From an uncultured Oscillospiraceae bacterium (GTDB lineage: Bacteria > Bacillota > Clostridia > Christensenellales > CAG-314): 64,000 nt of DNA. Under the pieces are notes generated by a model. The model had not been told where the DNA came from. It did no database searches and was given only the letters and a program-made list of their open reading frames with translations. Shown in pieces: positions 7,859-59,616 of this stretch. The first letter of the stretch is position 1, and the number at the start of each line of letters is the position of its first letter. Made by a program: the position numbers and the translations under genes. The stretch covers positions 31,599 through 95,598 of the forward strand of contig CAZHMU010000005.1 of the NCBI GenBank assembly GCA_964533825.1, read 5' to 3'.

Positions 7859-7954
7859 CTTTTTTTATTTTAACCTATATTTTTTCAAATTATAGCCGTA
7901 ATTGTGGACGAATTTGATATCTATCCGCATTACGGCTACTTGTGTTTTTATTGA

Positions 7955-8737: not shown

Positions 8738-10686
8738 TATCTTACTTCCTTACCGCTGTCAATGTCCTTTTCAGGTGTTACAAAAATAACCGATTTGTCG
8801 TCAGCAGCGCACAAAATCATACCGTTGCTTTCCACTCCGCGGATTTTTGCAGGTTTCAAGTTCTTGACAAGCACAACAGTCTTGCCCACCATGTACTCAG
8901 GAGTGTAGTGTTGCGCAATTCCGCTAACAACTTGACGCACTTCGTCGCCAACTTGCAGTTGGAAGCAAAGTAGTTTGTCGCTCTTTGCAACCTTTTCGCA
9001 ACTAAGCACCTTTGCGGTGCAAAGTTTTACCTTTGCAAACTCGGTAATGTCAATCAATTCTTCTTGTGGTTTTTCGCTTTGTGGTTCTTGCTTTTTGTTT
9101 TGAGCTTGCGCTTCAGCAACTTGTTTTGCGTGCAATTCTTCCAAAACTTTCAGTTCCTTTGCGATGTCAATGCGGTCAAACAAGTTTGCGCCCTTGGTTA
9201 CAGGTGTACCTTCGGCAATGCCACCAAATGTTTGGATTCCGTCAAAGTTTGTTGGAACTTCCACACCAATTTTACCAAAGATTGTCTTTGCAGTCTTGGG
9301 GATGAAAGGCAGCAACATGGTCGCAGCAAAACGGATGCATTCGCACAAAACGTACATTACTGTTGCCAAACGCTCTTTGTCACCGTTTTTGTTGAGAGCC
9401 CAAGGCATTGTTTCGTCAATGTACTTGTTGGCACGTTGAACAATCTTGAAGATGTTTGCCAAAGCATCTGGTGCGGAAAGGTTTTCGATGTCGGCACGAA
9501 CTTTTGCAAGAGTGCCTTCGCAAAGAGCAATAATTTCCTTGTCCAGCTCGGTGTAAGCGTTTGGTGCTGGGATTGTGCCACCAAAGTATTGTGTTACCAT
9601 TGCGGTGGTACGACTTACCAAGTTACCAAGGTCGTTTACAAGGTCGGTGTTGGTGCGAGTGAGTAACGCCTCGTTTGTGTAGTTGCCATCACTTCCAAAT
9701 GGGATTTCGCGAAGAAGGAAGTATCTGATAGCATCCACTCCGTAACGCTCCGCAAGGAAAAATGGATCAACAATGTTGCCTTTGGATTTACTCATCTTGT
9801 CGTTGTCAAAGAGCAACCAGCCGTGTCCGTAAACCTTCTTTGGCAGTGGCAAATCAAGCGCCATCAAAAGTGCCGGCCAAATGATGGTGTGGAAACGTAC
9901 AATTTCCTTGCCCACCATGTGAAGGTCAGCTGGCCAAAACTTGTCAAAGTTGGCGTGGTCTTCTTGAAGGTAGCCCAAAGCTGTGATGTAGTTTGTAAGC
10001 GCATCCACCCAAACGTATGCAACGTGTTTTGGATCAAATGGCAACTTTACACCCCAGTCAAATGTGGTACGAGATACGCACAAGTCTTTGAGACCGGGCT
10101 TGATAAAGTTGTTTATCATCTCGTTCATACGCGCCTTTGGACTGATAAAGTCGGGGTTTTCTTCGTAGAACTTGATGAGTTTGTCTTGATACTTGGAAAG
10201 ACGGAAAAAGTAGCTTTCTTCCTTGGCAAGCTTAACTTCTCTACCGCAGTCAGGGCATTTGCCGTCTACAAGTTGGCTTTCGGTAAAGAAAGATTCGCAA
10301 GGTGTGCAGTACCAACCTTCGTAGCTGGATTTGTAAATGTCGCCATTTGCAAGCAATTTTTCGTACACTTTTTGTACGGTTGCTTCGTGGTAGTCGTCAG
10401 TAGTGCGGATGAATTTGTCGTAGCTGATATCCAACAACTTCCAAAGCTCAATGATTTGGTCGTACAAGTCGTCAACAAACTTTTTGGGTGTTACGCCCTT
10501 TGCCTCTGCCTTTTGTTGTACCTTTTGGCCGTGTTCGTCGGTGCCGGTAAGGTAAAACACGTCAAAGCCATCCATACGCTTGAAACGCGCAATAGCATCG
10601 CAAATGATGGTTGTGTAGCAGTGACCAATGTGGAACTTGCCGCTTGAGTAGTAGATTGGAGTTGTGATGTAGTATGGTTTTTTCAT
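8737..10686 (-). CDS. metG: methionine--tRNA ligase with C-terminal tRNA-binding domain
   Basis: FHIGHCYT (HIGH), KMSKSKGN (KMSKS), a CPxC...CPDC zinc knuckle, and a Trbp111/EMAP-like C-terminus. Confidence 0.95.
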   Translation of the reverse strand: MKKPYYITTPIYYSSGKFHIGHCYTTIICDAIARFKRMDGFDVFYLTGTDEHGQKVQQKAEAKGVTPKKFVDDLYDQIIELWKLLDISYDKFIRTTDDYHEATVQKVYEKLLANGDIYKSSYEGWYCTPCESFFTESQLVDGKCPDCGREVKLAKEESYFFRLSKYQDKLIKFYEENPDFISPKARMNEMINNFIKPGLKDLCVSRTTFDWGVKLPFDPKHVAYVWVDALTNYITALGYLQEDHANFDKFWPADLHMVGKEIVRFHTIIWPALLMALDLPLPKKVYGHGWLLFDNDKMSKSKGNIVDPFFLAERYGVDAIRYFLLREIPFGSDGNYTNEALLTRTNTDLVNDLGNLVSRTTAMVTQYFGGTIPAPNAYTELDKEIIALCEGTLAKVRADIENLSAPDALANIFKIVQRANKYIDETMPWALNKNGDKERLATVMYVLCECIRFAATMLLPFIPKTAKTIFGKIGVEVPTNFDGIQTFGGIAEGTPVTKGANLFDRIDIAKELKVLEELHAKQVAEAQAQNKKQEPQSEKPQEELIDITEFAKVKLCTAKVLSCEKVAKSDKLLCFQLQVGDEVRQVVSGIAQHYTPEYMVGKTVVLVKNLKPAKIRGVESNGMILCAADDKSVIFVTPEKDIDSGKEVR

Positions 10687-10777
10687 ATTTTTCCTCTATT
10701 TTTCCAAAAGAACGAATGAGCTCTTTTGTTAATTTGACTTTTTGCAAACTTTAGTTGATTGTAATACTGTTAGATTC

Positions 10778-10803
10778 CGTAGGGGAGGGTTGCCCCTCCC
10801 GCA
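10778..10803 (+). repeat. GTAGGGG-hairpin repeat (H family) copy
   Basis: cGTAGGGGAGGGttgcCCCTCCCGCA; it shares its ends with 8 other copies in the window. Confidence 0.75.
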
Positions 10804-10929
10804 ATCAAGCGGTCAAACATATTTTGCCTGTATATTATATCAAGATAAATACAATTTGTAAACTATAAAAAACACCCATTTTAGCAATGTGGACGTAATA
10901 GTTGGCAAACTTTGTGCGTAAGATACCCT

Positions 10930-11532
10930 ATGAACGCAATTTGGACAACCTTGATAGTGGTGTGCTTTGTGACAATCACTTTGACAAATCCTAACGAGTT
11001 ACTCGCTTTGTGTGTGCAAAGTGGCACGCAAGCGTTGGAGTACGCACTTGAGCTTGTTGCAATCTACGCCCTTTGGCAGGGGGTATTTTGTGTTGCCGAA
11101 AGGTGCAATCTTGTGGAAAAACTTGCAAGGCTTCTCAAAAAACTGAACAATTTTTTATACGGCAACATCACACGAGAGGCACGCCACTACATCTCGCTAA
11201 ATATGGCAAGTAATCTTGTTGGTGTGGGCAACGCCGCAACACCATCGGCAATGGAGGCAATCAAGGAGATGGAAAGGGGCAACACACTTTCTCGCGGTGG
11301 TGCAATGCTGTTTGTGCTTAACGCTTGTGGCATACAACTTGTGCCCACAACAGTTATTGGACTACGTGCAAGCCACAACTCGCAAGACCCATCAGCGGTG
11401 CTTTTGCCCACCATCATTTGCACTGTGGTGTCGGCACTTTTGGGGGTACTTTTGGTGCATTGGGCCTACCCCAAAAACGCAACAGAGCCAAATGCAAACG
11501 GAAACTCTACAAAAGGAGCAATCACGCTGTGA
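10930..11532 (+). CDS. spmA: spore maturation protein A (nucleoside-recognition-domain membrane protein)
   Basis: Polytopic membrane protein starting MNAIWTTLIVV, with NMASNLVGVGNAATP (Gate-domain type motif). It is paired with spmB. Confidence 0.75.
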   Translation: MNAIWTTLIVVCFVTITLTNPNELLALCVQSGTQALEYALELVAIYALWQGVFCVAERCNLVEKLARLLKKLNNFLYGNITREARHYISLNMASNLVGVGNAATPSAMEAIKEMERGNTLSRGGAMLFVLNACGIQLVPTTVIGLRASHNSQDPSAVLLPTIICTVVSALLGVLLVHWAYPKNATEPNANGNSTKGAITL

Positions 11533-12032
11533 CCTACGCAATACCCATTTCGCTAATTGCATTGTTTGTGTATGCAAGTATCAAAAAAGTCAACGTCTAC
11601 AACGGTTTTGTCGATGGCGCAAAGCAATCGTTGCCAACTGCTGTTGCGGTGTTCCCCTACCTGTTTGCCACATTTTTGATGGTAAACGCACTGCACGCAA
11701 GCGGTGTAGGCAAGGTGGTTGTCAACTTCGTTGCGCCACCATTTGAGATGCTCGGCATCCCAAAGGAAGTGTTGGAACTGATGCTTATCAGGCCATTCTC
11801 CGGCAGTGGAAGTTTGGCAATTTTGGATGACGTGTACAAAACTTACGGAGTGGATAGCTATGTTGGCAGGTGCGCATCCGTCATCATGGGCAGTAGCGAA
11901 ACGGTGTTTTACATTTCCGCTTTGTACTTTTCCCAGACCCCAGTCAAGCGCCTTGGATGGGCCATCCCCATTGCTCTGTTTTGCAATTTTGTGGGTGGCA
12001 TTTTGGGTTGTATGCTTTGTCGCTGGATGTAG
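11529..12032 (+). CDS. spmB: spore maturation protein B
   Basis: In-frame GTG overlaps the spmA stop (GTGA). The conserved core is FVDGAKQSLPTAVAVFPYL...IRPFSGSGSLAIL. The upstream part of the track ORF (11325) overlaps spmA out of frame. Confidence 0.7.
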   Translation: MTYAIPISLIALFVYASIKKVNVYNGFVDGAKQSLPTAVAVFPYLFATFLMVNALHASGVGKVVVNFVAPPFEMLGIPKEVLELMLIRPFSGSGSLAILDDVYKTYGVDSYVGRCASVIMGSSETVFYISALYFSQTPVKRLGWAIPIALFCNFVGGILGCMLCRWM

Positions 12033-12275
12033 CTTTTTATAAGATTTTTCGCACATTTTTCAATTTTTCCAGCTTTTTATAATTTTTCACAGCGCATTTT
12101 ATAACTTTTTTTGCCGCCAAATGGTGCAAATTGCCTTTGTAAGGATATGGTAAAATGCGACAAAGTTTTTGTAATTATTTCAAAATTATTTGGCATTTCC
12201 GCTTTATCATAAGGTGACCAACAGTTTTTGTTGGATTTTTGTCACGCGCAAAATGTTGCGCCAAGCGGAGTTTTT

Positions 12276-14537
12276 ATGAAAAACGGAAAGTTATCTGCAA
12301 ATCTAATTTTGTTTTACGTTGTCTACACGGCAATGGTGGTACTGTCTGGCGGGGTGTTCGATGGACAATTTGCCTTTGGTACTTTTGTAGGTGCGTTGTA
12401 TGCTGGCAACCCACTGCTTGTGGCATTGTTGTACCTTGCGAGTAGTGTTGTGTATGGTATGGCAAACCTGTTGCAATGCGCAGTCAAGGTGGGCGTGATG
12501 CTACTTTGCTGGGGCATACATTTTTGGGCAAAGCGAAAAATCGGCAAGTTCCATTTGCTGTTGTATCTGCTACTTGCCAACGTTTTTTACCTTGCTTACC
12601 AAACTACCGACTACACGCTGTTGTTTGACAAAATTATGTACGCAACCTGTGGGGTGGCATTTAGCTTTGTTGCCTTGTATGTGTTTCGCGCTGTGTTTGT
12701 GCGGGGACTTGCCTATCCACCACAAGTGGGCGAGCGCATTTGTATTGCATTGTTTTCCATCGTGGCAACATTTTGTCTTTCCAAACTGACAGTGGTCACG
12801 CTCGAAGTCGTCTACTTTGTGTTGCCCTTTGTGCTGTTGTTTTGCAACAGTTGTTTTGACGAGAGAACAACACTTTTGGCAAGCGTCATTTGTGGCATTG
12901 GCAATTTGCTTGCTACTGGCACTTTGGAAGGTCTGGCTTTTTGTGCTCTTTCCGCATTGGCTATTGTTGCATTTGGCACAATTTCTCGTTATCTTTCGGC
13001 AGTGGGGGTTGTGGTTGTGGACGTTGCAATGAGCTATTTTTTGGGATTGCACGGCAACTTTTACGCATTGTTTTTTGCACCCACGCTCACGTCAGTGTTT
13101 GTGTTTGTGGTAATTCCGTCATCAGTGTACAAAAAACTCAACGATAGCTTTTGTGGCAACACCACACGTTACACCACAAAAAGCCTTTCTGGCAAACTAA
13201 CCCAAGACCTGACTCGCAGGCTGTTTCGTTTGTCGGATATCTTTATGTCTATCAAAAATGCCTTTTACACACTGTCCATTGGCAAAGTTTCCCAAGAACA
13301 AGTTGTTGGTTCCATTGTCAAACAGTGCAGTCAAACTGTGTGCCAAGCTTGCCCCAATCGTGCTTACTGTTGGCGACAACAGTTGCACATCACCGAAAGA
13401 GCACTGTTACAGCTTTCAGAGCGAGCGCTATCTGCTGGCAAATGCACCATTTTGGATATCCCCCAAACACTGTCCGCAAGGTGCGACCGATTGTCAATGA
13501 TACTTTCCCAAGTCAATTCGCTGGCGGAAACGCACAAGCAGTTTGTGGACAAAGCAGAAGACCGCTACCAAACAAAACTGCTTGTTGCCGACCAAATGGC
13601 GGGTGTTTCGTCACTACTGTTGCAACTTGCCACCGACTACAAAAGTAACGTAACCTTTGACACTTCTCGCGAAAGGGAAATCAAGGAAAGTCTCATTTTC
13701 CACAACGTGCTTTGTTCGGATGTTACAATGGTAACCCACGGCGGATGTTTGCTGGTGGTGGTAACCGTTGCCAAAAGCGACCTTGACGAGCCCACAATCG
13801 AGCAGTGCGTGGGGCTTGTTGTCAAACAAACTATGGCAACGCAAAAAGTAGAGCTTACCGACAACTCCAGGTGGGTCAACGTCTACCTAAACGTCAAACC
13901 GCGGTTCGAAATGTCCTTTGGCATTGCATCCGTTGCCAAGTCTGGCAGTGACGTTTCAGCAGATACCCACAGCCAAATTGCCACCGACAACGGCAAAAGC
14001 ATCGTCACTCTTTGCGATGGTATGGGCAGTGGGCAAGAGGCGGAGCAAATGTCCGCAACAGTCATCAATTTGGTGGAAAGTTTCTACCGCGCGGGGTTCG
14101 ACTCCGACACAATCTTGTCCGCTATCAACGGCTTGCTCACTCAAAGTGGCAACGAAATTTTTTGCGCTGTGGATATGGTTGTTGTTGACCTTTACAATGG
14201 CTTTGCAGATTTTGTAAAACTGGGAGCGCCAGTGGGGCTTGTCAAGTGTGGAAACGTCGTTGAGATGATCCGTGGTAGTAGTTTGCCCCTTGGTGTTTTG
14301 GAAGAAATGAAACCATCCATCACCAAAAAGGCGTTGAAGCCTGGCGACATTTTGCTGCTTGTTAGTGACGGCATTGCCGATTGCTACAAGGATGTAACCC
14401 TGCTTGCTGAAGTGCTACACAACGTCACCTACACCGCGCCTCAAAGCATTGCGGAAACAATTTTGGCCAAAACGCTCAAGCAATGCAACAACACCCCACC
14501 AGACGACATGACAGTAGTGGTTGCAAAAATTGTTTAA
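12276..14537 (+). CDS. spoIIE: stage II sporulation protein E (PP2C phosphatase with ~10 TM)
   Basis: ATG 5 nt after GGAG. The N-terminal polytopic region is followed by a C-terminal PP2C domain (LCDGMGSGQEAEQMS, LLLVSDGI, DDMTVVVAKI). Confidence 0.88.
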   Translation: MKNGKLSANLILFYVVYTAMVVLSGGVFDGQFAFGTFVGALYAGNPLLVALLYLASSVVYGMANLLQCAVKVGVMLLCWGIHFWAKRKIGKFHLLLYLLLANVFYLAYQTTDYTLLFDKIMYATCGVAFSFVALYVFRAVFVRGLAYPPQVGERICIALFSIVATFCLSKLTVVTLEVVYFVLPFVLLFCNSCFDERTTLLASVICGIGNLLATGTLEGLAFCALSALAIVAFGTISRYLSAVGVVVVDVAMSYFLGLHGNFYALFFAPTLTSVFVFVVIPSSVYKKLNDSFCGNTTRYTTKSLSGKLTQDLTRRLFRLSDIFMSIKNAFYTLSIGKVSQEQVVGSIVKQCSQTVCQACPNRAYCWRQQLHITERALLQLSERALSAGKCTILDIPQTLSARCDRLSMILSQVNSLAETHKQFVDKAEDRYQTKLLVADQMAGVSSLLLQLATDYKSNVTFDTSREREIKESLIFHNVLCSDVTMVTHGGCLLVVVTVAKSDLDEPTIEQCVGLVVKQTMATQKVELTDNSRWVNVYLNVKPRFEMSFGIASVAKSGSDVSADTHSQIATDNGKSIVTLCDGMGSGQEAEQMSATVINLVESFYRAGFDSDTILSAINGLLTQSGNEIFCAVDMVVVDLYNGFADFVKLGAPVGLVKCGNVVEMIRGSSLPLGVLEEMKPSITKKALKPGDILLLVSDGIADCYKDVTLLAEVLHNVTYTAPQSIAETILAKTLKQCNNTPPDDMTVVVAKIV

Positions 14538-14621
14538 TTATATACAAGAAAGCTCGATATATCAACAATCTTATTATTGATGTTGTTTGTATAAGCGATA
14601 GTGCGTATTTGGTAGATAAGA

Positions 14622-14667
14622 GACTCTCACTTTGGGAGAGCTGGCACGATAGTGCCTGAGAGGAGTG
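14622..14667 (+). repeat. nested-hairpin repeat (S family) copy
   Basis: CTCTCACTTTGGGAGAGCT-[GGCAC gata GTGCC]-TGAGAGG; same frame as the copy at 24630 but with a different inner stem. Confidence 0.7.
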
Positions 14668-14756
14668 CTTGGTAAAGATGCATTGGCCTAATACCCCAAA
14701 ACATTGTATCAAAAAATATTCCTTTGACATAAACTATCTTGTCAAAGGGAGACACA

Positions 14757-15362
14757 ATGGACTACATTTTGGATAGCACCGTCAAGGTGGGACGTAACGT
14801 CACAATCGAGCCGTTTGCCGTTGTAAAGGGCAATACGGTTTTGGGAGATGGATGTGTTGTGGGCAGTTTCAGTTATCTTGTGGATGCCACAGTTGGGCAA
14901 AACACAGTAATCAAGAGTTCGCGTATTGTAGCAAGCACAGTTGGCGCAAATTGTACAGTTGGCCCCAATGCGCATTTGCGCGACAACTCAGTAGTGGGAG
15001 ATGGTTGCAGGGTAGGCAACTTTGTGGAAATCAAAAACAGCACTTTGGAAAGTGGCGTCAAAGCCAGCCACCTTGCCTATGTTGGCGATGCGTTCGTTGG
15101 CGCGGACACAAACATTGGCTGTGGTGTAATTTTTGTCAACTACGATGGCAAACACAAGCACCGTACCACCGTTGGCAAAAACTGTTTTATTGGGTGCAAC
15201 ACCAACCTTGTTGCTCCTGTGACGGTTGGCGACAACTGCTTTGTTGCCTGTGGCACAACTGTGGATAAGGATATCCCCAACGGCACCTTTGGCATTGGCA
15301 GAAGCTACCTTGTTTTGAAGGAAGGTCGCGCCATCCACTACCTAAAAAAGCCCCCAGAGTGA
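14757..15362 (+). CDS. left-handed beta-helix acetyltransferase equal to the C-terminal half of GlmU only
   Basis: Hexapeptide repeats and the GlmU C-terminal signature (VNYDGKHKHRTTVGKNCFIGCNTNLVAPVTVG) are present. No uridyltransferase domain exists; only ~200 nt of non-coding DNA lies upstream. Confidence 0.75.
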   Translation: MDYILDSTVKVGRNVTIEPFAVVKGNTVLGDGCVVGSFSYLVDATVGQNTVIKSSRIVASTVGANCTVGPNAHLRDNSVVGDGCRVGNFVEIKNSTLESGVKASHLAYVGDAFVGADTNIGCGVIFVNYDGKHKHRTTVGKNCFIGCNTNLVAPVTVGDNCFVACGTTVDKDIPNGTFGIGRSYLVLKEGRAIHYLKKPPE

Positions 15363-20066: not shown

Positions 20067-22937
20067 CTATTCTCCATCTGCAAATGTGATGGTAATTGTC
20101 AAGCTATCCGCTGTTACGCTGTCAAAGCTGATGTCAAAGTTGACAAGCTTGCCATCGTTGCGAGTGTAGTTTGGTTGAGCTTGGCTAAACACATCCCCTG
20201 TTTGCCACAGGTCATCAGCAGCCGCACAACTAAAGTAGTCACCATAGATGTCTTGCACTTGGTCGCTTTCAAAGTTGGAGTCGCCGTCCGCTTCTACAAG
20301 CTTCAATAGTGGTGTGGCAGATGTTGAGTTGTTGTTGTCCGTAAAGGAGTAGTACTCGTCCCCGTAAGGGTTGGCAATGGTTGCGTCAACGTGATAGATA
20401 CGTGCGCCAAAGCTTGCGCCATCGTAGAGATAACTGTCATCAAGGCCTGCGTGCAATGCGTTGAGCCCTGTTGCCGAGTACAAATCTATGATTAGATACT
20501 CGCTAAAGTAAGTTCCGTCGTAGTCCAACAAAACAATGACAAACTGTCCACTGCTTTCCAAACTGCTGATGGTTATTGTTTGTGTGCCAGTCACGACAGC
20601 CGTAGGCTTAACCCAGCCAAGCAACAACTTGGAGTAAGCATTGTGGTCACCCACGGTGTAGTCCATCATATCCGCGCCGCCCAAACCTTTGTCACTGCCT
20701 TGGTTTGGATTGTAGTCGTAGTAGTCGTCCAGCCCCAACATATGGCCTGTTTCGTGTATGTATGTTGTCGCGTTGAGTTTCAATCCAGCAATGGGACTAA
20801 ATTCGTTGGGGTCGCTTGTTTCAATGTCCTCGTACATAAAGTCCACGCTTGCAAACAAGTAGGTGTAGGCATCCAAGTCGCCGTAGGACAGGTCGTCAGT
20901 GTATCCAGTAACGTATGCCCAGTAGTAGTCGCCATCGTAGTCGATAGGCGCACTGTAAATGATGTACACGCCATCAATAACGCCGTTTTGGTCAACGTCG
21001 TACTTGGTAAAGTCAAAGCCGCGTGCATACAGTTGGTCAAGTGCCAGCTTCACAATGTCTCCGCCGTAGTCACTTATGCCGTTTTTGTCAGTTTCAAAAC
21101 TGCCGTATGTAGAGCTCAACGTAACCTTGTCTGCAACGTCAAATGTCATGTTGAGTTTGCCGTAGGATGATGTTTGGTAGTAGCTTGCAACACTTTCCCA
21201 ACCGGTGTTTGCCTTGTTGTTGAACACGTTGGCAATGTCGGTAAGTTCTTGCGTGGTAAACTTGTCGTTGGAAAACTCCACAGGTACAACCAAAACGTTG
21301 TAGTTGCCTTGAGATGGCAATCCAGTGGACGCAAGGTATCCTTGTTGAGTGTCGTAGTTAGTGATTGCATCGTACAAGATGTCATCGTAGTCTTGGTGGT
21401 TGGCACTGTCATACGCTTGCTCTGGCATCACTTCTTTGGATGGTGTGGACGAGTCACCTGCACCAGTTGCCGAAATGGTGATGGTCTTGAAGTAGATTGA
21501 ACCAAGACCGGATGCGTTTGTTTTTGCAGGTACAACTTCAATCACAACTTTGCCACTAACGGCAGTGGTGGATGTAAATGTCAAAATATTGTTGTTGATA
21601 TTTTGGAATACAACCTCGCTTTGTCCGTCACAAGTAAATACAGTTGAGCCTACCTTTACAGTAACAGTGATGTCCGTTGTTTTGTTTGCGGAAATATCAA
21701 TAGTGATGGATGAAACATTGTCCACGTTTGTTGTGGATGTCAACGTAATGCCACCCAGTTGCTTTTGGAATTGAACACCGCGGTTGGCATCCCAACCGTC
21801 AACTTTTCTGCTTGCAACAAAGCTAACTTCGCCTGTGCTGTTCAAAGTTGTTGCTCCAGTGGATGTCTCAAATGTTGTTGTCAGTTCTTGGTTATCTCCA
21901 CTTGGTGGTGTAACATCTTCACCAGTGTTGTCGCCACCAGTATTATCATCAGTTGTATCGCCAACAACGTTCAGGTTGCTTACGTCCACTGTAACTGTGT
22001 CGTAGTTGGATAGTTGCACTGTGTAAGTAAACACCGCATCGTAGTAGTCGTCTTGTTGTGTGGCAACAATCTTGGTAACTTTGCCATTTGCGATGTACAA
22101 ATCAACTGCGGTGTAAGTGCAACTTTCGTATTCGCCAAACAAATCATTGCCTGCGTCACTTGGGCTGGTAGCACTGTAGTGGTCGTCACTTTGTACCCAA
22201 TCGTAGTTGCCAAGCAAAGCCAAATCTACCCAATCAAGGTAGCCGTAGTATATTTCGTAAAACTCGTCATAATTGTCGTTGTAGGATAGCTTTGTGTAGG
22301 TGCCGTCCTCGTTGTCGTAGTAGTAGAGTATGTCAGTATCGGTGTACACAACGTAGTCCACAAAGTTATTTTGCTCATCTGTGTAGTAAAAGTTGTAGCC
22401 GTCATACAAGTAGATGAGCGTGTAAGCATATACGTTGGCAATGGATGCTTTGTCTGCGTCAACACTAAACTTGAGTTCAAAGTTCCATTGTTCGTAGTCG
22501 ATGTAGTTGGCAAACACGTCACTCAAATCGGCATGTGTTGTATCTCCACTTGGTGGTGTAACAGTTCCACCTTGGTCATTGTTGTCGCTTCCGCCTTGAT
22601 TTGTATTGTCGTCACCGCCTTGATTGTTGTCCTCCGCTTGAACAATAACGATGATGGACTTACTTGCTCCTTCGTAACTGCAAGTAACAATAAACGCACC
22701 CGCCTTTGTAAAATCGGCATTGGGAGCATCAATCATCTCGTCAGTGACAAGCACACCTTCACCTTTATCATTGGTAATGGTAAAGTAATCTTTCAGGTCC
22801 ACAACTTGGCCAACAGTAACGGTGTAACTGTTTTCTTCACTGGATACAGTGTATGTTGATGGAGTAATGATGTCGCACGCACAAAAAACACAACTTAGGC
22901 ACACAATCATCAACAAAACTATGGCTAATTTCCTCAT
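20067..22937 (-). CDS. large secreted lipoprotein with C-terminal HExxH zinc metallopeptidase domain (M6/InhA-like motif context)
   Basis: The true start is Met36 of the track ORF (AAAGGAGAAG RBS). Signal/lipobox MRKLAIVLLMIVCLSCVFCAC. An Ig-like N-domain is followed by two Asn/Gly/Asp linkers each ending VTPPSGD, then HETGHMLGLDDYYDY. Confidence 0.8.
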   Translation of the reverse strand: MRKLAIVLLMIVCLSCVFCACDIITPSTYTVSSEENSYTVTVGQVVDLKDYFTITNDKGEGVLVTDEMIDAPNADFTKAGAFIVTCSYEGASKSIIVIVQAEDNNQGGDDNTNQGGSDNNDQGGTVTPPSGDTTHADLSDVFANYIDYEQWNFELKFSVDADKASIANVYAYTLIYLYDGYNFYYTDEQNNFVDYVVYTDTDILYYYDNEDGTYTKLSYNDNYDEFYEIYYGYLDWVDLALLGNYDWVQSDDHYSATSPSDAGNDLFGEYESCTYTAVDLYIANGKVTKIVATQQDDYYDAVFTYTVQLSNYDTVTVDVSNLNVVGDTTDDNTGGDNTGEDVTPPSGDNQELTTTFETSTGATTLNSTGEVSFVASRKVDGWDANRGVQFQKQLGGITLTSTTNVDNVSSITIDISANKTTDITVTVKVGSTVFTCDGQSEVVFQNINNNILTFTSTTAVSGKVVIEVVPAKTNASGLGSIYFKTITISATGAGDSSTPSKEVMPEQAYDSANHQDYDDILYDAITNYDTQQGYLASTGLPSQGNYNVLVVPVEFSNDKFTTQELTDIANVFNNKANTGWESVASYYQTSSYGKLNMTFDVADKVTLSSTYGSFETDKNGISDYGGDIVKLALDQLYARGFDFTKYDVDQNGVIDGVYIIYSAPIDYDGDYYWAYVTGYTDDLSYGDLDAYTYLFASVDFMYEDIETSDPNEFSPIAGLKLNATTYIHETGHMLGLDDYYDYNPNQGSDKGLGGADMMDYTVGDHNAYSKLLLGWVKPTAVVTGTQTITISSLESSGQFVIVLLDYDGTYFSEYLIIDLYSATGLNALHAGLDDSYLYDGASFGARIYHVDATIANPYGDEYYSFTDNNNSTSATPLLKLVEADGDSNFESDQVQDIYGDYFSCAAADDLWQTGDVFSQAQPNYTRNDGKLVNFDISFDSVTADSLTITITFADGE

Positions 22938-22971
22938 AAGTAACTTCTCCTTTTGAGATTTTTCTGTGTAA

Positions 22972-23256
22972 GGCTCTATCACAAACTCTGGTTGCCCTTT
23001 GACGGCAAAACGACTGTGCAATCTCCCACATTGCTCGGTCACAGACTTTGCAAGTATGCTCCGCGTCGCAACTAACGCTACATTGTTCGCAATGATGCAA
23101 AAAAAGCATCATTGCTCACTTTTAGCGTTGTTGCTCCTTTCCCCACAAACCAAGATTTGATTTTGTGGGGACCCCATTAGTTGCAATGTAGTTCTTGCTT
23201 GCGATTTATCCACCAAACCGCCTAACGGCCAATCAACCATTTTCTGCGACATATCC
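22972..23256 (+). mobile_element. ISL3-like MITE, long form (L1)
   Basis: The 5' end GGCTCTATCACAAACTCTGGTTGC and the 3' end ...CAATCAACCATTTTCTGCGACATATCC form imperfect terminal inverted repeats. It aligns end to end with the copy at 59293. Internal hairpins include GCAATGATGC/GCATCATTGC and CCCCACAAA/TTTGTGGGG. Confidence 0.75.
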
Positions 23257-23269
23257 TTTTGTTAAACAC

Positions 23270-23298
23270 ATTATACTTGCAATTTATTGCGCTGTCAA
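23270..23298 (-). promoter_or_regulatory. sigma-A promoter driving the protease gene through the MITE
   Basis: Minus strand TTGACA, 17 nt, TATAAT. It lies just outside the MITE, about 330 nt upstream of ATG 22937. Confidence 0.6.
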
Positions 23299-23320
23299 CG
23301 ATACGCAAATATCTTTATTG

Positions 23321-23338
23321 TTGATACTTTAGTATCAA
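23321..23338. promoter_or_regulatory. perfect palindrome, candidate operator
   Basis: TTGATACT tt AGTATCAA, 23 nt upstream of the -35 of the protease promoter. Confidence 0.3.
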
Positions 23339-23545
23339 AGCACAAAAAATCTACCAAACGTAGCTTAAAACCATCTGTATTTTGGCGGACCATTGACAAA
23401 ATTTTTAGTAAATGATTTGCAGAGTTTTGTTTTGATGCTTAAACGCAAACGTCACCCAATCGCCACTTGTAATATTCGAACTTTTTGTCCACACAAAACA
23501 ATGCAAAAACACACACCAATAATTGCAACAAAGGGCAAAATACGC

Positions 23546-23574
23546 TTGAACAGTTTGGCAACTTGGTGTATAAT
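23546..23574 (+). promoter_or_regulatory. sigma-A promoter of the riboswitch leader
   Basis: TTGAAC, 17 nt, TATAAT. Confidence 0.6.
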
Positions 23575-23591
23575 ACTTTCACAACACAATA

Positions 23592-23780
23592 GTTTGCAGG
23601 TTGCGTGAAACAATCGCATTTGTGGGGGAACAATGTGCAAATCATTGACAGTCCCGCTACGGTAAGGCCTTGCCAAGTCCGAATGCCCAACTGCAACAAT
23701 TTTTAAGGATGGTCTTCGATGCAAAGATACAACTCACTTTTGCCACGCAAAAATGGTTGTATTTGCGGTGGCATTTTTTC
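23592..23780 (+). promoter_or_regulatory. cobalamin (B12) riboswitch with terminator expression platform
   Basis: The core GGGGAAcaaTGTGcAAATCattgACAGTCCCGCTACGGTAAgg matches the conserved GGGAA..GGTG.AAATCC...CAG.CCCGC.AC.GTAA segment. A B12-box-like AGTCCGAATGCCC and a closing GTTGC/GCAAC helix follow, then the terminator GCCACGCAAA/TTTGCGGTGGC plus T6. Confidence 0.65.
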
Positions 23781-23785
23781 GTTTA

Positions 23786-23947
23786 GGCTCACTCACAAGA
23801 GCTGGTTTGCTTTTTGACGGCAAAAGTTCTGCGTAGATAGCGACGTTTTGTTCAGTCGCAGATGTTCCACGTATGCTCCTTCACATCAACGACGCTCCTA
23901 CTTGCCTTTTCTTTGTCACATCGCCTAACGGCTAACCAACTATCCCA
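23786..23947 (+). mobile_element. ISL3-like MITE, diverged/truncated copy (L2a)
   Basis: GGCTCACTCACAAGAGCTGGTTTGCTTTTTGACGGCAAAAG ... CGCCTAACGGCTAACCAACTATCCC carries the same 5' and 3' modules as the other copies. Confidence 0.6.
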
Positions 23948-23948
23948 T

Positions 23949-24020
23949 GCTCTTCGCAAGGTCTTGGTTGCTTTTTGATAGCAAAATGACTCACGCAACC
24001 AAACCATCCCACAATGATTG
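23949..24020 (+). mobile_element. ISL3-like MITE fragment, 5' module only (L2b)
   Basis: GCTCTTCGCAAGGTCTTGGTTGCTTTTTGATAGCAAAATGACTC abuts L2a. Confidence 0.5.
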
Positions 24021-24069
24021 TGCCACCATTGTTGTTGTAAAAAATACATCACGAAAAGGAGAAAAAACA

Positions 24070-24573
24070 ATGAAACACACAAAAAGATTGCTAACGTGGA
24101 TTTTGGCAGTAGTGCTTGTTGTTGGCGCATTGTGTTTGGTTGCTTGTGTGGAAAAACCCACACCACAGCAACTCACGGAACTAACTGTGCCCAATCTCAA
24201 GGATGGTCAAGTGGCTGTCATCATCAAAAATGGCGACAAAGACTTTACCAGCTACGTCGTATCACTCACTGACGAAATGACAAAGGTTGCAGACGTACTG
24301 CAATATCTCAAGGATAACGGTATGTCCCTCGACTGGACAGACTCCGACTACGGCAAAATGATCAACGCCATTGGTCAAATCACTCCAGACCCATCCAAAA
24401 ACGAGTTTGTAGCATTTTTCACAAGCGTACAAGCAGACAAAGGCAACTGGGCTGGCGTGCCTACCTACACACTAGGGGACACAGAACTGCAAATTGTATC
24501 CGCACAAGTGGGTGTAAGTGATGCCACAGTGGAAAGCGGTGCAGTTTTCTACTTTGAAATTTCCACCTATTAA
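24070..24573 (+). CDS. DUF4430 (transcobalamin-like fold) lipoprotein
   Basis: The true start is Met42 of the track ORF (GGAGAAAAAACA ATG). Lipobox LCLVAC. The DUF4430-like body reads ...SDYGKMINAIGQI...W.....G.....GVSDATVESGAVFYFE. It lies downstream of the B12 riboswitch. Confidence 0.7.
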   Translation: MKHTKRLLTWILAVVLVVGALCLVACVEKPTPQQLTELTVPNLKDGQVAVIIKNGDKDFTSYVVSLTDEMTKVADVLQYLKDNGMSLDWTDSDYGKMINAIGQITPDPSKNEFVAFFTSVQADKGNWAGVPTYTLGDTELQIVSAQVGVSDATVESGAVFYFEISTY

Positions 24574-24590: not shown

Positions 24591-24618
24591 GTAGGGGGGC
24601 GAGCCGTGCTCGTCCGCA
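24591..24618 (+). repeat. H-family hairpin copy
   Basis: GTAGGGGGGCGAGCcgtGCTCGTCCGCA. Confidence 0.7.
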
Positions 24619-24629
24619 CCTTGTAAAAA

Positions 24630-24672
24630 GGCTCTCACTTTGGGAGAGCTCCCACGTAGTGGGTGAGAGGGG
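24630..24672 (+). repeat. S-family nested hairpin copy
   Basis: GGCTCTCACTTTGGGAGAGCT-[CCCAC gta GTGGG]-TGAGAGGGG. Confidence 0.7.
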
Positions 24673-25689: not shown

Positions 25690-25755
25690 TGTGGTACATG
25701 AAGGCTCTTTGAAACAAAGATCCTTTATAATCTAAAAATCAAGGAGAAAACAAAA

Positions 25756-26220
25756 ATGAAAAAAGTTCTTGTACTTGCACTCGTAGCTGTTATGGTATTT
25801 GCAGTATGCTCTTTGACAGCTTGCGGTGTAAACACTTACACAGGCGAATGCTCTTACGAATCTTGGGGCACAACATATGGTTGCAAAGTTGACGTTACAG
25901 TTAACGGCAAAGGCGTTATCACATCCGTAAAACTTTGGTCTGACGAAGATACTGGTTGGGTTAGAACAACTTCCGCTGACCGTTGGGATGGTACATCTCT
26001 CGGTATCGGTTACGAAGCTGCAGAAGCTGCTTACGCAGATTACCTCAAGCTCTTCAAAGGTAAGACTGTAGAAGAAGTTATGGCTATCGACGTTGAAGTT
26101 AACGCTCTCATCCAAGTGGTTGAAGACGATTGGTCCATTGCTGGTGCAACAGTATCCGCTGCACGTATCGTTGCTGCTGTTCAAGATGCTCTTAGCCAAA
26201 TCCCAGCTGACGCTGAATAA
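25756..26220 (+). CDS. FMN-binding-domain lipoprotein (flavinylation substrate), paralog 1
   Basis: Lipobox SLTAC. The C-terminal IAGATVSAARIVAAV is the S/TGAT flavinylation-site context of FMN_bind domains. Confidence 0.75.
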   Translation: MKKVLVLALVAVMVFAVCSLTACGVNTYTGECSYESWGTTYGCKVDVTVNGKGVITSVKLWSDEDTGWVRTTSADRWDGTSLGIGYEAAEAAYADYLKLFKGKTVEEVMAIDVEVNALIQVVEDDWSIAGATVSAARIVAAVQDALSQIPADAE

Positions 26221-26250
26221 TTGAATTAGCAAAACACAAACAAAAACAAA

Positions 26251-26282
26251 GGCATTTGCACAACGCAAGTGTCTTTTTGTTT
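26251..26282 (+). terminator. terminator after paralog 1
   Basis: GGCATTTGC/GCAAGTGTC stem (with G-U pairs) plus T-run. Confidence 0.5.
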
Positions 26283-26469
26283 GTGGAGCAAATCTCACTT
26301 TTACTCAAACATTTATCAATAAGCAGGGGCTATCAAATCTATGGTGCTGTTTGTCAAGACTAAAAATAGGCTCGCACTAACAATTGCCATAAACAAACCT
26401 GTCGCAATAGCATAGACAAAAATTTATACGCCCCAACAAAAAATCTATGAAAATTATGTTTTCAACCGC

Positions 26470-26498: not shown

Positions 26499-26551
26499 GC
26501 TAATTGTATGAAAGTCTTTTCATAACAATATTATTCAAGGAGAACACTAAA

Positions 26552-27001
26552 ATGAAAAAGATTCTTGTTATTGCTCTTACAGTAATCATGGTTGTTTCCG
26601 CTTTCGCTCTTACAGCTTGCGCACAACCACAAACAGTTACAGGCGAATGCTCTTACGAATCCTATGGCACAAAATATGGTTGCAAAGTTGACGTTACAGT
26701 TCAAAACGGCATCATCACAGCAGTTAAACTCTACACAGACGAAGAAACTGGTTGGGTTAGAACAACCGCTCCATACGGTAACTGGTCTCAAGAACAATTT
26801 GACGCTGCTGAAGGCGCTTACGCTGAATACCTTGATAAATTTGTTGGTATGACAGTTGAACAAGCAAACGCTATCGTTGCTACAGCTACAGCTGAGGGTC
26901 AATCAGTCGAAACTGAAGGTTGGGCTATTGCTGGCGCAACAGTATCTTCCGCTCGTATCATCGTTGCTATTCAAAACGCTCTTAGCAAACTTGCTGCTTA
27001 A
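26552..27001 (+). CDS. FMN-binding-domain lipoprotein, paralog 2
   Basis: The true start is Met17 of the track ORF (AAGGAG RBS). Lipobox ALTAC. IAGATVSSARIIVAI is present, and there are long nucleotide-identical runs with paralog 1. Confidence 0.75.
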   Translation: MKKILVIALTVIMVVSAFALTACAQPQTVTGECSYESYGTKYGCKVDVTVQNGIITAVKLYTDEETGWVRTTAPYGNWSQEQFDAAEGAYAEYLDKFVGMTVEQANAIVATATAEGQSVETEGWAIAGATVSSARIIVAIQNALSKLAA

Positions 27002-29294: not shown

Positions 29295-29320
29295 TACAGG
29301 GGCGAATTGTGGTCACCCAT
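29295..29320 (+). repeat. H-family hairpin copy (degenerate)
   Basis: TACAGGGGCGAattgtGGTCACCCAT. Confidence 0.5.
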
Positions 29321-29446
29321 ACAATCACCAACTCAACTACATCAAAGTTGTTACTGGCTAATATCTGCCCATTTTAGCATAATATTTTTGTTGGTTACAA
29401 TCCCGTAGGGACCACCTGCATACCTTTGCAATTTGGAGCCAATGAA

Positions 29447-30471: not shown

Positions 30472-30498
30472 TGTAGGGGCGACCTGTGGTCGTCCGCA
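30472..30498 (+). repeat. H-family hairpin copy
   Basis: tGTAGGGGCGACCtgtGGTCGTCCGCA; 25 of 26 nt identical to the copy at 58632. Confidence 0.75.
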
Positions 30499-52464: not shown

Positions 52465-52752
52465 ATGAAAAACTCAAAACCTAAAATTGGTGAGACATTG
52501 CTCGAAGCCTTGATAGAAATCGTGCTTGCCGTCATTTGCTTTGGGATTGGTACACTTGTATTGAATTTGTTCGGTGTAGGCTTTTCCTTGTGGGAAGTAG
52601 ACCCAGATAGGATAATTTTGATAGGCGTGTTCGCGTTTTTGTTTGTTTTGGCACTTGTTTGCATCATTGTGCAATGGGCAAAGTCCATCGCAAAAGGCAA
52701 GCAGAGCAACAACAAGAGTGACGACTGTCAATCAACAAAAACACAAAAGTAG
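52465..52752 (+). CDS. small 2-TM membrane protein
   Basis: Internal Met27 of the track ORF. It has two hydrophobic helices and a basic tail. Confidence 0.45.
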   Translation: MKNSKPKIGETLLEALIEIVLAVICFGIGTLVLNLFGVGFSLWEVDPDRIILIGVFAFLFVLALVCIIVQWAKSIAKGKQSNNKSDDCQSTKTQK

Positions 52753-52769
52753 TGCACATTGAAACAACT

Positions 52770-53258
52770 ATGATTTATCGCAAAACAAAGGCGGAAGATT
52801 TTCCCGCCGTCATACAACTCAAAAACCAAGTCAAGCAACGCGTCATTGCGCAAAACCTTGCAATTTGGCAGGATGGCTATCCACAAGACCAACTCATTGC
52901 CGACGACATTGCCCACGGCTTTGGCCGAGTTGTGCAAATTGATGATCAAATTGTCGCCTATGCAACATTTCATTCCGCCGACTACGAGTATCCCAAGGAT
53001 ACCTTTCGCAAAAACAACGTGATGTCCTTTGGCAGAGTTATGGTTGCAGATGGCTTTGTTGGCAAAGGTATTGCAAGTTTTTTGGTACAAAGTATGATTG
53101 ACGAAGCGCGCAACCTTGGCTACGATGGCGTTGGCATTTTGGTGGACGATTTCAACGAGCGTGCCACTCGCCTTTACTACCGCAAAGGTTTTGTCAAGGA
53201 AGGTCACGCCACTTTTCCTTGGGCCGATTTGGATATATTGGCATTGTATTTTAACTAA
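52770..53258 (+). CDS. GNAT-family N-acetyltransferase
   Basis: MIYRKTKAEDFPAV... with the acetyl-CoA loop RVMVADGFVGKGIASFL and ...YRKGF. Confidence 0.8.
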   Translation: MIYRKTKAEDFPAVIQLKNQVKQRVIAQNLAIWQDGYPQDQLIADDIAHGFGRVVQIDDQIVAYATFHSADYEYPKDTFRKNNVMSFGRVMVADGFVGKGIASFLVQSMIDEARNLGYDGVGILVDDFNERATRLYYRKGFVKEGHATFPWADLDILALYFN

Positions 53259-53430
53259 GGCTCTGTCAAAAACTCTGGTTGCTTTTTTACGGCAAAACGG
53301 CTACGTAATTTCCCAGATTTTACTCGGTCACTGCCCCTACGTAACCTCACTTGCAACAATGTGGTTATTGCCCGCTTTTTATCCGTCAAACCGCCTAATG
53401 GTTAATCAACCATTTCTTTGTGGAATATCC
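53259..53430 (+). mobile_element. ISL3-like MITE with perfect 8-bp target-site duplication (L3)
   Basis: TTAACTAA (53251-53258) and TTAACTAA (53431-53438) flank the element exactly. Its ends are GGCTCTGTCAAAAACTCTGGTTGC and ...TTAATCAACCATTTCTTTGTGGAATATCC. Confidence 0.85.
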
Positions 53431-53542
53431 TTAACTAATTGCAATATTTTGGTATTTACAAATATTAGTTTGCAAAGTATAATAGTAAAAAGTAGCATAC
53501 CCTAAAAGTAAAACTGCACCTTGTGGTGCAAAAGGAGTCATT

Positions 53543-57635: not shown

Positions 57636-57712
57636 GGCTTTGTCACAAACTCTGGTTACTTTTTGACGGCAAAACGCCTAATGGCTAATCAACTATTTCT
57701 TGTAACAGAACC
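57636..57712 (+). mobile_element. ISL3-like MITE, minimal 77-bp form (L5)
   Basis: GGCTTTGTCACAAACTCTGGTTACTTTTTGACGGCAAAACG is joined directly to CCTAATGGCTAATCAACTATTTCTTGTAACAGAACC. Flanks are ATTTTTTT / AATTTTTT (7 of 8 match). Confidence 0.75.
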
Positions 57713-57861: not shown

Positions 57862-58557
57862 ATGCAAGAATTTTGTCGTATGCAAATGCTTGTAGGTGAG
57901 CAAGCTGTACAAAAATTGCAATCAAGTCACGTTGCTGTGTTTGGCATCGGTGGTGTTGGATGCTACACTGTCGAAGCTCTCGCTCGCGCAGGCGTAGGAC
58001 ATTTGACACTTGTCGATGATGACCTTTTTGCCACAAGCAACATCAATCGCCAACTGTATGCACTGCAATCGACTTTGGGACAAAGCAAGGTGGATGTTGC
58101 CAAAGCACGCATTGCCGATATCAACCCTAATTGCCAAGTTACAGCATTGCATTTGCGTTTTGATGCGCAAACTGCCCACCAATTTGATTTTGCCCAATTT
58201 GACTACGTTGTAGACGCAATCGACACAGTAACAAGCAAATTGTTGCTTGCAAAGCTCTGCAATGACAGCAACACTCCCATCATCAGCTGTATGGGCACAG
58301 GTAACAAGCTTGACCCAACTGCGTTTGAGGTCGCCGATATCTACAAAACATCCGTTTGCCCCCTTGCCAAAGTGATGCGCAAGGAGCTCAAGGCATTGGG
58401 TATCGACCATCTCAAAGTAGTGTACTCCAAGGAAATCCCCCAAACTCCCACTCAGCTGGAACGTTCCAACAAGCGTCAAACACCATCCAGCATATCCTTT
58501 GTGCCATCGGTAGCAGGGCTAATTTTGGCGGGCGAAGTTATCAAAGGTTTAATTTAA
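57862..58557 (+). CDS. tcdA: tRNA threonylcarbamoyladenosine dehydratase (ThiF/E1-like)
   Basis: AAGGAG RBS; VAVFGIGGVGCYTVEALARAGVGHLTLVDDD...NINRQ. Confidence 0.85.
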   Translation: MQEFCRMQMLVGEQAVQKLQSSHVAVFGIGGVGCYTVEALARAGVGHLTLVDDDLFATSNINRQLYALQSTLGQSKVDVAKARIADINPNCQVTALHLRFDAQTAHQFDFAQFDYVVDAIDTVTSKLLLAKLCNDSNTPIISCMGTGNKLDPTAFEVADIYKTSVCPLAKVMRKELKALGIDHLKVVYSKEIPQTPTQLERSNKRQTPSSISFVPSVAGLILAGEVIKGLI

Positions 58558-58631
58558 GGCTCGCTCACAACATCTTGTTTTCTTGAAGGAGCTTCGACTT
58601 CCTTTTTGGGGAGGCAAAATACTATACAATC

Positions 58632-58658
58632 CGTAGGTGCGACCTGTGGTCGTCCGCA
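58632..58658 (+). repeat. H-family hairpin copy
   Basis: cGTAGGTGCGACCtgtGGTCGTCCGCA. Confidence 0.75.
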
Positions 58659-59292: not shown

Positions 59293-59616
59293 TGCTCTGT
59301 CGCAAACTCTGGTTGCTTTTTGACAGCAAAACGACTGCGCAATCATCTGTGTTTTGTTCTGTCACAGACCCTACAGGTATGATCCGCGTCGCAACTAACG
59401 CAATATTGTTCGCAATGATATAGTAACATCATTGCTTGCTTTTAGCGTTGTTGCTCGTCCTACAAATCAGGGGTTTGATTTGCGGGGGTCCATCAGTTAC
59501 AATGTGGTTCTTGCTTGCGTTTTACTCGTCAAACCACAGCCTCTCACGCTGGGAGAGGTGGCAGTCGCAAGACTGACGGAGAGGGCGGCCAATCAACCAT
59601 TTCTTGTGACAAAGTC
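59293..59616 (+). mobile_element. ISL3-like MITE, long form carrying a nested T-variant hairpin (L4)
   Basis: Collinear with L1 (22972..23256), including the GCAACTAACGC...GCGTTGTTGC long hairpin. The ~48-nt insert at 59539-59586 replaces GCCTAAC of the 3' module. Confidence 0.75.
59539..59586 (+). repeat. T-variant nested hairpin inside MITE L4
   Basis: GCCTCTCACGCTGGGAGAGGTGGCAGTCGCAAGACTGACGGAGAGGGC; inverse orientation relative to the copy at 29503. Confidence 0.75.

Follow-up and report, generated by a model that had tools for sequence, protein, structure and literature searches.

We describe a family of short non-coding repeats in a 64-kb stretch of DNA (hereafter the window) from an uncultured Oscillospiraceae bacterium (contig CAZHMU010000005.1), with its flagged copy at positions 53259-53430. 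The repeats are genuine miniature inverted-repeat transposable elements (MITEs), restricted to a lineage of uncultured ruminant-gut Clostridia, and with good confidence we classify them as an IS1595-type foldback MITE with a canonical length of ~173 bp and ends like those of the insertion sequence ISSag10. The original prediction is borne out in that the family is non-autonomous and non-coding, is bounded by terminal inverted repeats and makes 8-bp target duplications; our analysis adds presence/absence evidence from related genomes. Its ISL3-like label appears to be wrong: from their similarity to known repeats, and with some risk, we place the ends in the IS1595 family, within its ISSag10-like clade.

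Copies and insertion sites

All six copies or fragments previously noted in the window were recovered, at the same coordinates, by searches with the 5' and 3' modules of the element and with an nhmmer profile built from five ~173-nt copies, which was run at full sensitivity over the whole 64 kb. Allowing up to three mismatches, the 5' module occurred at four sites, and the 3' module was found at two; none was expected in either case from shuffled sequence. The profile placed all six copies or fragments on the + strand (segments 22972-23089 and 23182-23256; 23786-23949; 23954-23998; 53259-53430; 57636-57711; and 59294-59413, 59499-59537 and 59586-59614) and gave no other significant match. The copies and the duplications of the flagged copy are as follows.

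53259-53430, + strand, 172 bp: flagged MITE copy, canonical short form; 5' end GGCTCTGTCAAAAACTCTGGTTGC, 3' end CAACCATTTCTTTGTGGAATATCC; nhmmer E=6e-45 over the full profile
53251-53258, unstranded: left target duplication of the flagged copy, TTAACTAA; includes the TAA with which the GNAT gene (52752-53258) terminates
53431-53438, unstranded: right target duplication of the flagged copy, TTAACTAA; followed by the promoter-like site 53455-53483 of the next gene
22972-23256, + strand, 285 bp: long-form copy with canonical ends and a hairpin-rich insert of ~115 nt at the foldback apex; flanks CTGTGTAA / TTTTGTTA, 5/8 identical
23786-23948, + strand: short-form copy without the 3' terminal repeat; nhmmer E=9e-45, profile positions 1-163; adjoins the fragment at 23949
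23949-24020, + strand: degenerate fragment in which the 5' module alone is clearly recognizable and the 3' part is strongly decayed; nhmmer 23954-23998, E=5e-5
57636-57712, + strand, 77 bp: ends-only copy, equal to the basal foldback stem, in a divergent intergenic region; flanks ATTTTTTT / AATTTTTT, 7/8 identical
59293-59616, + strand, 324 bp: long-form copy whose first base is mutated (TGCTCT...); identity to the 22972 copy 83%; flanks AGGCAAAA / TAACAAAA, 5/8 identical

The size range given earlier, 77 to ~325 bp, was correct. Copies are 69-83% identical to one another, and those in the window carry one to four tip mutations; the best-kept copies have the terminal inverted repeats GGCTCTGTCACAA ... 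TTGTGACAyAGCC. The element is non-coding, the open reading frames (ORFs) listed over its copies being extensions of, or overlaps with, neighbouring genes. No Rfam family matched it: the sole match in the window was a cobalamin riboswitch at 23581-23708, and a permissive search of 22900-24100 added none. A separate stretch at 58553-58633 (GGCTCGCTCACAACATCTTG...), directly after the stop codon of a ThiF-like gene, looks like a lone decayed element end, with an nhmmer E value of only 0.22; a weak match of the same type recurs in two same-species Logan contigs (L062 and L063).

Three further copies were present in 16 kb of loci from RGIG2098, a goat-colon Clostridia metagenome-assembled genome (MAG), at L009:1821-1993, L010:7736-7908 and L010:4819-4989. 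When genome contigs were scanned with the 5' module, RGIG2098 was the sole carrier in the species collection (two copies), apart from one chance match.

The flagged copy is flanked by the perfect 8-bp duplication that had been predicted for it, TTAACTAA at both 53251-53258 and 53431-53438, and the two flanks of the 57636 copy agree at seven of eight positions. We set element boundaries from the terminal repeats and compared the adjoining 8-nt flanks for four window copies and the three RGIG2098 copies. Identities were 8, 7, 6, 5, 5, 4 and 4 of 8, a sum of 39/56 compared with ~17.6 for the local background, and none of 100,000 resamples scored as high.

Related genomes also revealed sites that lack the element. 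One is the flagged site, which is empty in a related MAG, GCA_045636585.1 (locus L070), where nhmmer found no element; the GNAT protein there is 81% identical to that of the window, and the GNAT stop codon and the conserved promoter TGGTATTTACAAA...TATAAT are only 16 nt apart. In the opposite direction, RGIG2098 contig L010 is syntenic with window positions 7955-14974 at 76-87% identity in reverse orientation, and carries two copies at sites that are empty in the window, with homology resuming at the terminal repeats.

7954-7961, unstranded: empty target site; the 173-bp RGIG2098 copy (L010:7736-7908) lies exactly here, at the stop codon of a TatD-like gene; window - strand TAAATAAT; 87% synteny up to the junction
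10700-10707, unstranded: empty target site; the 171-bp RGIG2098 copy (L010:4819-4989) lies here, 14 nt before the start codon of gene 8737-10686 (- strand); window - strand TTGGAAAA

Filled and empty states thus differ between related genomes at three sites with alignable flanks on both sides. The original prediction had proposed searching related MAGs for copies, target duplications and empty sites, and all were obtained: further copies in RGIG2098, the excess of flank identity and the three empty sites. Within the window's own species there was no difference in occupancy, all Logan contigs being alike, including in the 77-bp form at 57636. Together with the 69-83% identity between copies, this uniform occupancy indicates that the window copies are old. 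Most of them are also decayed, with several mutated tips and eroded duplications.

Two side observations concern these loci. A more distant relative with a GNAT protein 75% identical to that of the window (L071:2568-2814; ERZ28593711 scaffold_38) has ~170 nt of unrelated filler between the GNAT gene and a 108-aa gene; this filler includes sequence of a second repeat family and faintly resembles the 5' module (CTTGTCAACTTTGGTTGTTTTG), and the element could not be detected in it. This site could be a hotspot for small insertions or hold a very decayed copy, and we counted it as neither filled nor empty. Among five same-species Logan contigs (L062-L066), four end at ~59413, the palindromic apex of the 59293 copy, and L062 extends ~35 nt further; all five break inside that copy. 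The break suggests either that the genome holds more near-identical long-form copies or that the assembly graph fails at the palindrome as such.

Terminal repeats and family assignment

Searching plasmids by blastn with the best-preserved copy returned a weak recurrent match (E = 6; Campylobacter, Glaesserella, Enterococcus and Ligilactobacillus plasmids), which in the two plasmid records that we opened was the left end of an annotated 'IS1595-like element ISSag10'. The left ends of ISSag10 (GGCTCTGTCACAACAAATGGTTGATTTTTGACG) and of our element (GGCTCTGTCACAAACTCTGGTTGCTTTTTGACG) were identical at 28/33 positions. Their right ends read ...ATCAACTGTTTGTTGTGACATAGCC and ...AATCAACCATTTCTTGTGACATAGCC, respectively, and the element right end matched the ISSag10 ends at 21-22/24 positions. 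The terminal inverted repeats of the element span ~25 bp, GGCTnTGTCACAA-N4-TGGTTG, and both the diagnostic GTCACAA block and the subterminal TTTTTGACG are common to the element and ISSag10, not to ISL3. Ungapped identity to the element was calculated over the first 13, 24 and 33 nt for ends of three families; the ISL3 comparison comprises two elements only, ISArsp7 and ISPst2, neither of them from Firmicutes, whose repeats and 8-bp duplications are given in Table 3 of PMC6305408.

ISSag10 (IS1595) ends: 12-13/13 (13/13 for the best-matching end); 19-22/24; 26-28/33
IS1216 (IS6, from plasmid pL8) ends: 9-10/13; 10-14/24; 11-16/33
ISArsp7 and ISPst2 (ISL3) ends: 4-7/13; 6-9/24; 33-nt column not applicable (24-nt repeats)

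The ISSag10 transposase has the Pfam domains DDE_Tnp_IS1595 (PF12762) and Zn_ribbon_IS1595 (PF12760) and 1,947 homologues at E <= 1e-10. We sampled five ISSag10-like lineages (P0077, P0028, P0095, P0079 and P0093), with transposases 65-77% identical to that of ISSag10. Four of them begin GGCTATGTCACA... or GGCTATATCACA..., the same tips as our element; an inner [TA]GGTTGAT comes next in three of these four, and the P0079 element has TAGTTGAT. The fifth lineage, P0093, starts GGCTATGTCCCAA and has GGGTTGAC. None of the five matches positions 14-17 or the subterminal sequence of the element better than ISSag10 does.

ISSag10-like elements of the P0095 and P0028 types are flanked by AT-rich 8-bp duplications (TAATTCGA, AAACATTT, TAAAAGAA, ATTCTTTT and TATTTTTT), and six of seven complete insertions of the ISSag10 clade have a perfect one, the exception being a P0028 copy (L056) at 6/8; at the P0079 and P0077 loci the left-end tip alone was identified, and duplications were read only where both ends were legible. 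ISSag10 in pL8 likewise has a perfect duplication, TTATAAAA. As a side observation, some ISSag10-like elements contain another repeat-like motif in their interior, CTGTCACAATCTATGGTTGAC, located ~70 nt inward of the left end (L067:2367-2480; L050:1094 and ~1437). In L050, the recognizable tip is 407 nt upstream of the transposase gene, which suggests either a nested insertion or a subterminal binding site.

Two of the grounds for the ISL3 label did not hold. An 8-bp duplication had been taken as the hallmark of ISL3, and it does not discriminate, because IS1595 elements make the same duplication, often perfect in ISSag10-like elements. Duplications of 8 bp are a described trait of IS6 elements too. 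The repeat earlier quoted as that of 'IS1251', GGTTCTGTTGCAAAG, is an IS6-family repeat: ggttctgttgcaaagttttaaatctac... is given as an IS6 inverted repeat (PMC2920175), a repeat of the GGTTCTGTTGCAAAG type borders a putative transposon with an IS431mec-like IS6-family copy (PMC10581047), and the same repeat flanks annotated IS1216 copies in pL8 (L061). The first half of pL8 contained no ISL3 element. No ISL3 element with the ends of our element (GGCTCTGTCACAAACTCTGGTTGC...) was found, nor was an ISL3 transposase among the 18 larger window ORFs scanned.

It is thus very unlikely that the MITE derives from, and was moved by, an ISL3-family insertion sequence. ISL3 elements do share the GG-starting ends and the 8-bp duplication (ISArsp7 and ISPst2; PMC6305408), and the ISPst2 repeat GGGTATCCGGAATTTCTGGTTGAT ends in TGGTTGAT at positions 17-24, near the TGGTTG at 18-23 of our element. 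The ISSag10 repeat (GGCTCTGTCACAACAAATGGTTGAT; L038:3001-3025) is GG-tipped as well and has TGGTTGAT at 18-25, a likeness across families that may explain the misassignment. Against an ISL3 origin stand the low identities over 13 and 24 nt compared with those of the ISSag10-clade ends, the GTCACAA block and TTTTTGACG shared with ISSag10 instead, the IS6 nature of the earlier comparator and the lack of an ISL3 transposase in the scanned ORFs. Even less probable is a relationship to IS6-family elements (IS1216, IS257 and IS26), whose repeat GGTTCTGTTGCAAAG resembles the element tip (GGCTCTGTCACAAAC) and which share the 8-bp duplication: the 9-10/13 identity to the pL8 IS1216 ends falls away beyond the tip, where ISSag10 keeps 19-22/24 and 26-28/33, and the inner TGGTTG and TTTTTGACG are missing from IS1216.

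Against this background, the element resembles ISSag10 in its tips (GGCTnTGTCACAA, 13/13, then TGGTTG), in the left-end TTTTTGACG and in its AT-rich 8-bp duplications (TTATAAAA for ISSag10 in pL8, TTAACTAA for the element). It differs in having neither transposase nor passenger gene, in its size (77-324 bp versus 1.7-2.4 kb), in an interior that is a foldback unrelated to that of ISSag10, and at positions 14-17 and past position ~33; these last differences indicate that ISSag10 itself is probably not the parent. Distribution differs too: our element was found only in the uncultured lineage of ruminant-gut Clostridia, and ISSag10 occurs widely across plasmids and prophage-like contigs. With the ISL3 elements, the common features are 8-bp duplications, GG-starting repeats of ~24 bp and, in ISPst2, a similarly spaced inner TGGTTGAT; the transposase is of another type and repeat identity is low. 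The IS6 elements (IS1216, IS431 and IS26) have similar tips and 8-bp duplications, and no likeness past the tip.

Foldback structure, strand and proposed mechanism

We aligned five copies from two genomes (window 53259-53430 and 23786-23948, L009:1821-1993, L010:7736-7908 and L010:4819-4989) and obtained, with RNAalifold, a consensus fold of 53 pairs that joins the left half of the element to its right half. The terminal repeats pair with each other, TGGTTG with CAACCA, TTTGACGG with CCGTCAAA, and CAAAAC with GTTTTA, and a small GCC-TAAC-GGC hairpin bulges from the right arm. In this fold 89.9% of cells are paired and 17 pairs have changed on both sides, a number reached by none of 500 shuffles and compared with 0-6 in slid controls. 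The left half is 69-79% identical to the reverse complement of the right half, which equals the identity between different copies (69-79%), and the element thus has the appearance of a single insertion-sequence end duplicated in inverted orientation. The size variants fit the same architecture: the 77-bp copy is the basal stem only, and the 285- and 324-bp copies share the apex insert of ~115 nt, which is hairpin-rich (fold energy z = -5.4). Single-sequence RNA folds of 77-nt and 172-nt copies were unexceptional (z = -1.1, -2.2 and -0.2), the structural signal appearing in the comparative analysis only. G-U cells in the stem (10) do not clearly exceed A-C cells (7), and neither RNA strand is therefore favoured.

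Eight copies (six in the window and two in L010) can be set in a common syntenic frame, and every one of them is on the same strand, regardless of which way the adjacent genes run. Counted as seven independent insertions on one strand, this has a two-sided probability of ~0.016. In L009, the RGIG2098 copy is likewise oriented as most genes of that locus are, and GC skew in these sequences was too weak to call leading versus lagging strand. Both the stem and the strand features are drawn from few sequences. We give little credence to the speculative reading that the stem is actively maintained, a possibility raised by the compensatory changes, and that copies enter or persist in a fixed orientation with respect to chromosome replication; if true, it would point to a domesticated strand-specific hairpin element or be the first sign of replication-fork coupling of ISSag10-type IS1595 transposition.

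A related alternative, which we also consider improbable, is that the host keeps the repeats as a functional structured nucleic acid, an RNA stabilizer or processing site or a strand-specific chromosomal signal, with the MITE-like ends as a remnant of its origin. The paired and two-sided changes in the stem, the arms that are as complementary within a copy as copies are identical, the common strand, and the location of several copies in leaders or just past stop codons would all suit such a function. They are countered by the balance of G-U and A-C cells, by copies that lie sense, antisense and outside obvious transcripts, by tips and duplications that decay like neutral relics, by the lack of an Rfam match and by the small basis of five sequences from two genomes. 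Moreover, template-switch correction of quasi-palindromes during replication can give paired changes without selection, and is a sufficient DNA-level explanation of the kept stem. That the repeats are not a mobile element at all, but are similar by chance, were produced by assembly or were spread by segmental duplication, is the least probable reading. Assemblers do struggle with the repeat, as the same-species Logan contigs that all break inside the 59293 copy illustrate; yet zero chance matches were expected, the copies occur in independent assemblies of several samples and in a separate MAG, and their boundaries are sharp at the terminal repeats, with unrelated flanks.

Several results weigh against an IS1595-type foldback MITE as the full account. 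Neither the 17 compensatory pair changes nor the shared strand of the eight copies is predicted by a plain MITE model, only one copy has a perfect duplication, and the family is seen in two related genomes only. The tips of IS6, ISL3 and IS1595 elements are partly alike (GGnTCTGT in IS6, the inner TGGTTGAT in ISPst2), such that assigning a family from repeats alone carries some risk. A tblastn search detected no IS1595-type transposase in either the window or the RGIG2098 loci (16 kb), and no autonomous element with identical ends appeared in scans of viral or metagenome contigs. The identity of the mobilizing partner as an IS1595-family transposase is likewise inferred from end similarity (28/33 and 22/24), not end identity.

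The lack of a transposase in the window, as originally predicted, was consistent across searches: tblastn with the ISSag10 transposase was negative, and 18 of the larger ORFs (mostly >= ~300 aa) had either no Pfam domain or only ones of housekeeping type. The 5' and 3' modules had no match in viral contigs, and a looser terminal-repeat pattern retrieved mostly ISSag10 itself. In metagenome contigs, the terminal-repeat pattern excluding ISSag10 gave ten matches, nine of one conserved sequence and one unrelated, and no copy of the element. Given these negative searches and the lack of a transposase in the RGIG2098 loci, we infer that the partner either lies elsewhere in the genome or is extinct.

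For the IS1595-type MITE that we favour, a plausible mechanism is that an IS1595-family DDE transposase, encoded elsewhere in the genome now or formerly, would bind both ~25-bp ends in trans. A staggered cut at an AT-rich intergenic 8-mer would allow insertion of the element, and repair would leave the 8-bp duplication. The element body may have arisen, as its appearance suggests, by inverted duplication of one insertion-sequence end, with size variants arising symmetrically about the hairpin apex. Old, decayed copies would then sit passively in leaders and intergenic regions, adding long hairpins to transcripts.

In overall design the element is of an ordinary kind, and what is new is the lineage that carries it. 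Foldback MITEs such as Correia/CREE in Neisseria, ERIC in enterobacteria and RUP in pneumococcus are likewise small, intergenic and non-coding, have terminal inverted repeats and target duplications, come in size variants, form long hairpins when transcribed and often lie in untranslated regions; by description, they are set apart from our element by end sequences, duplication length and putative partner family. The corrected family assignment shows that GG-starting ends and an 8-bp duplication do not identify ISL3, IS1595 and IS6 sharing both. It also ties a lineage-specific MITE of ruminant-gut Clostridia to a clade of clinical relevance, ISSag10 carrying the lincosamide resistance gene lnu(C). 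Annotators can use the 173-nt profile to mask repeats that break short-read assemblies of this organism and lengthen leaders. The kept stem and uniform strand are small, testable oddities that may show how such elements insert or persist.

Neighbouring genes and other repeats

The flagged copy lies between the GNAT stop codon, which is supplied by the left duplication, and the promoter of the next gene. The 22972 copy lies between a - strand consensus promoter at 23298-23270 and a - strand gene starting near 22937; this promoter (23270-23298, - strand) is a perfect TTGACA-17-TATAAT and points into the copy. Judging from this arrangement, the leader of the 991-aa - strand gene would contain the entire 285-nt element in antisense orientation. 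The cobalamin riboswitch (Rfam RF00174, 40.2 bits) is followed by an apparent hairpin plus T-run terminator, identified by eye. Just past this terminator come the 23786 and 23949 copies, within the stretch 23735-24070 in the leader of the regulated, lipoprotein-like gene (start at 24071). MITE sequence makes up ~235 nt between riboswitch and gene, which indicates that the leader was lengthened by insertions, and transcripts that cross filled sites should carry long hairpins.

The 59293 copy itself hosts an unrelated insertion.

59537-59585, + strand: member of a second, unrelated short repeat family, nested in the 59293 copy, where it replaces the small GCCTAACGGC hairpin; 47 nt, 91% complementary to 29504-29550

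Members of this second family (~50 bp, GCCTCTCACGCTGGGAGAGGTGGCAG...GACGGAGAGGG) also occur at 14618-14648 and 24626-24656 and, in RGIG2098, at L009:3206-3250, with a similar motif in L071. A third family consists of GC-rich hairpin repeats of ~26 nt (GTAGGGGCGACCTGTGGTCGTCCGCA) at 24593-24618, 29296-29321, 30473-30498 and 58633-58658, which are intergenic and mostly just downstream of genes. Finally, two tandem paralogous genes for small lipoprotein-like proteins (25733-26298 and 26529-27001) are 72-94% identical in blocks, 796 nt apart.

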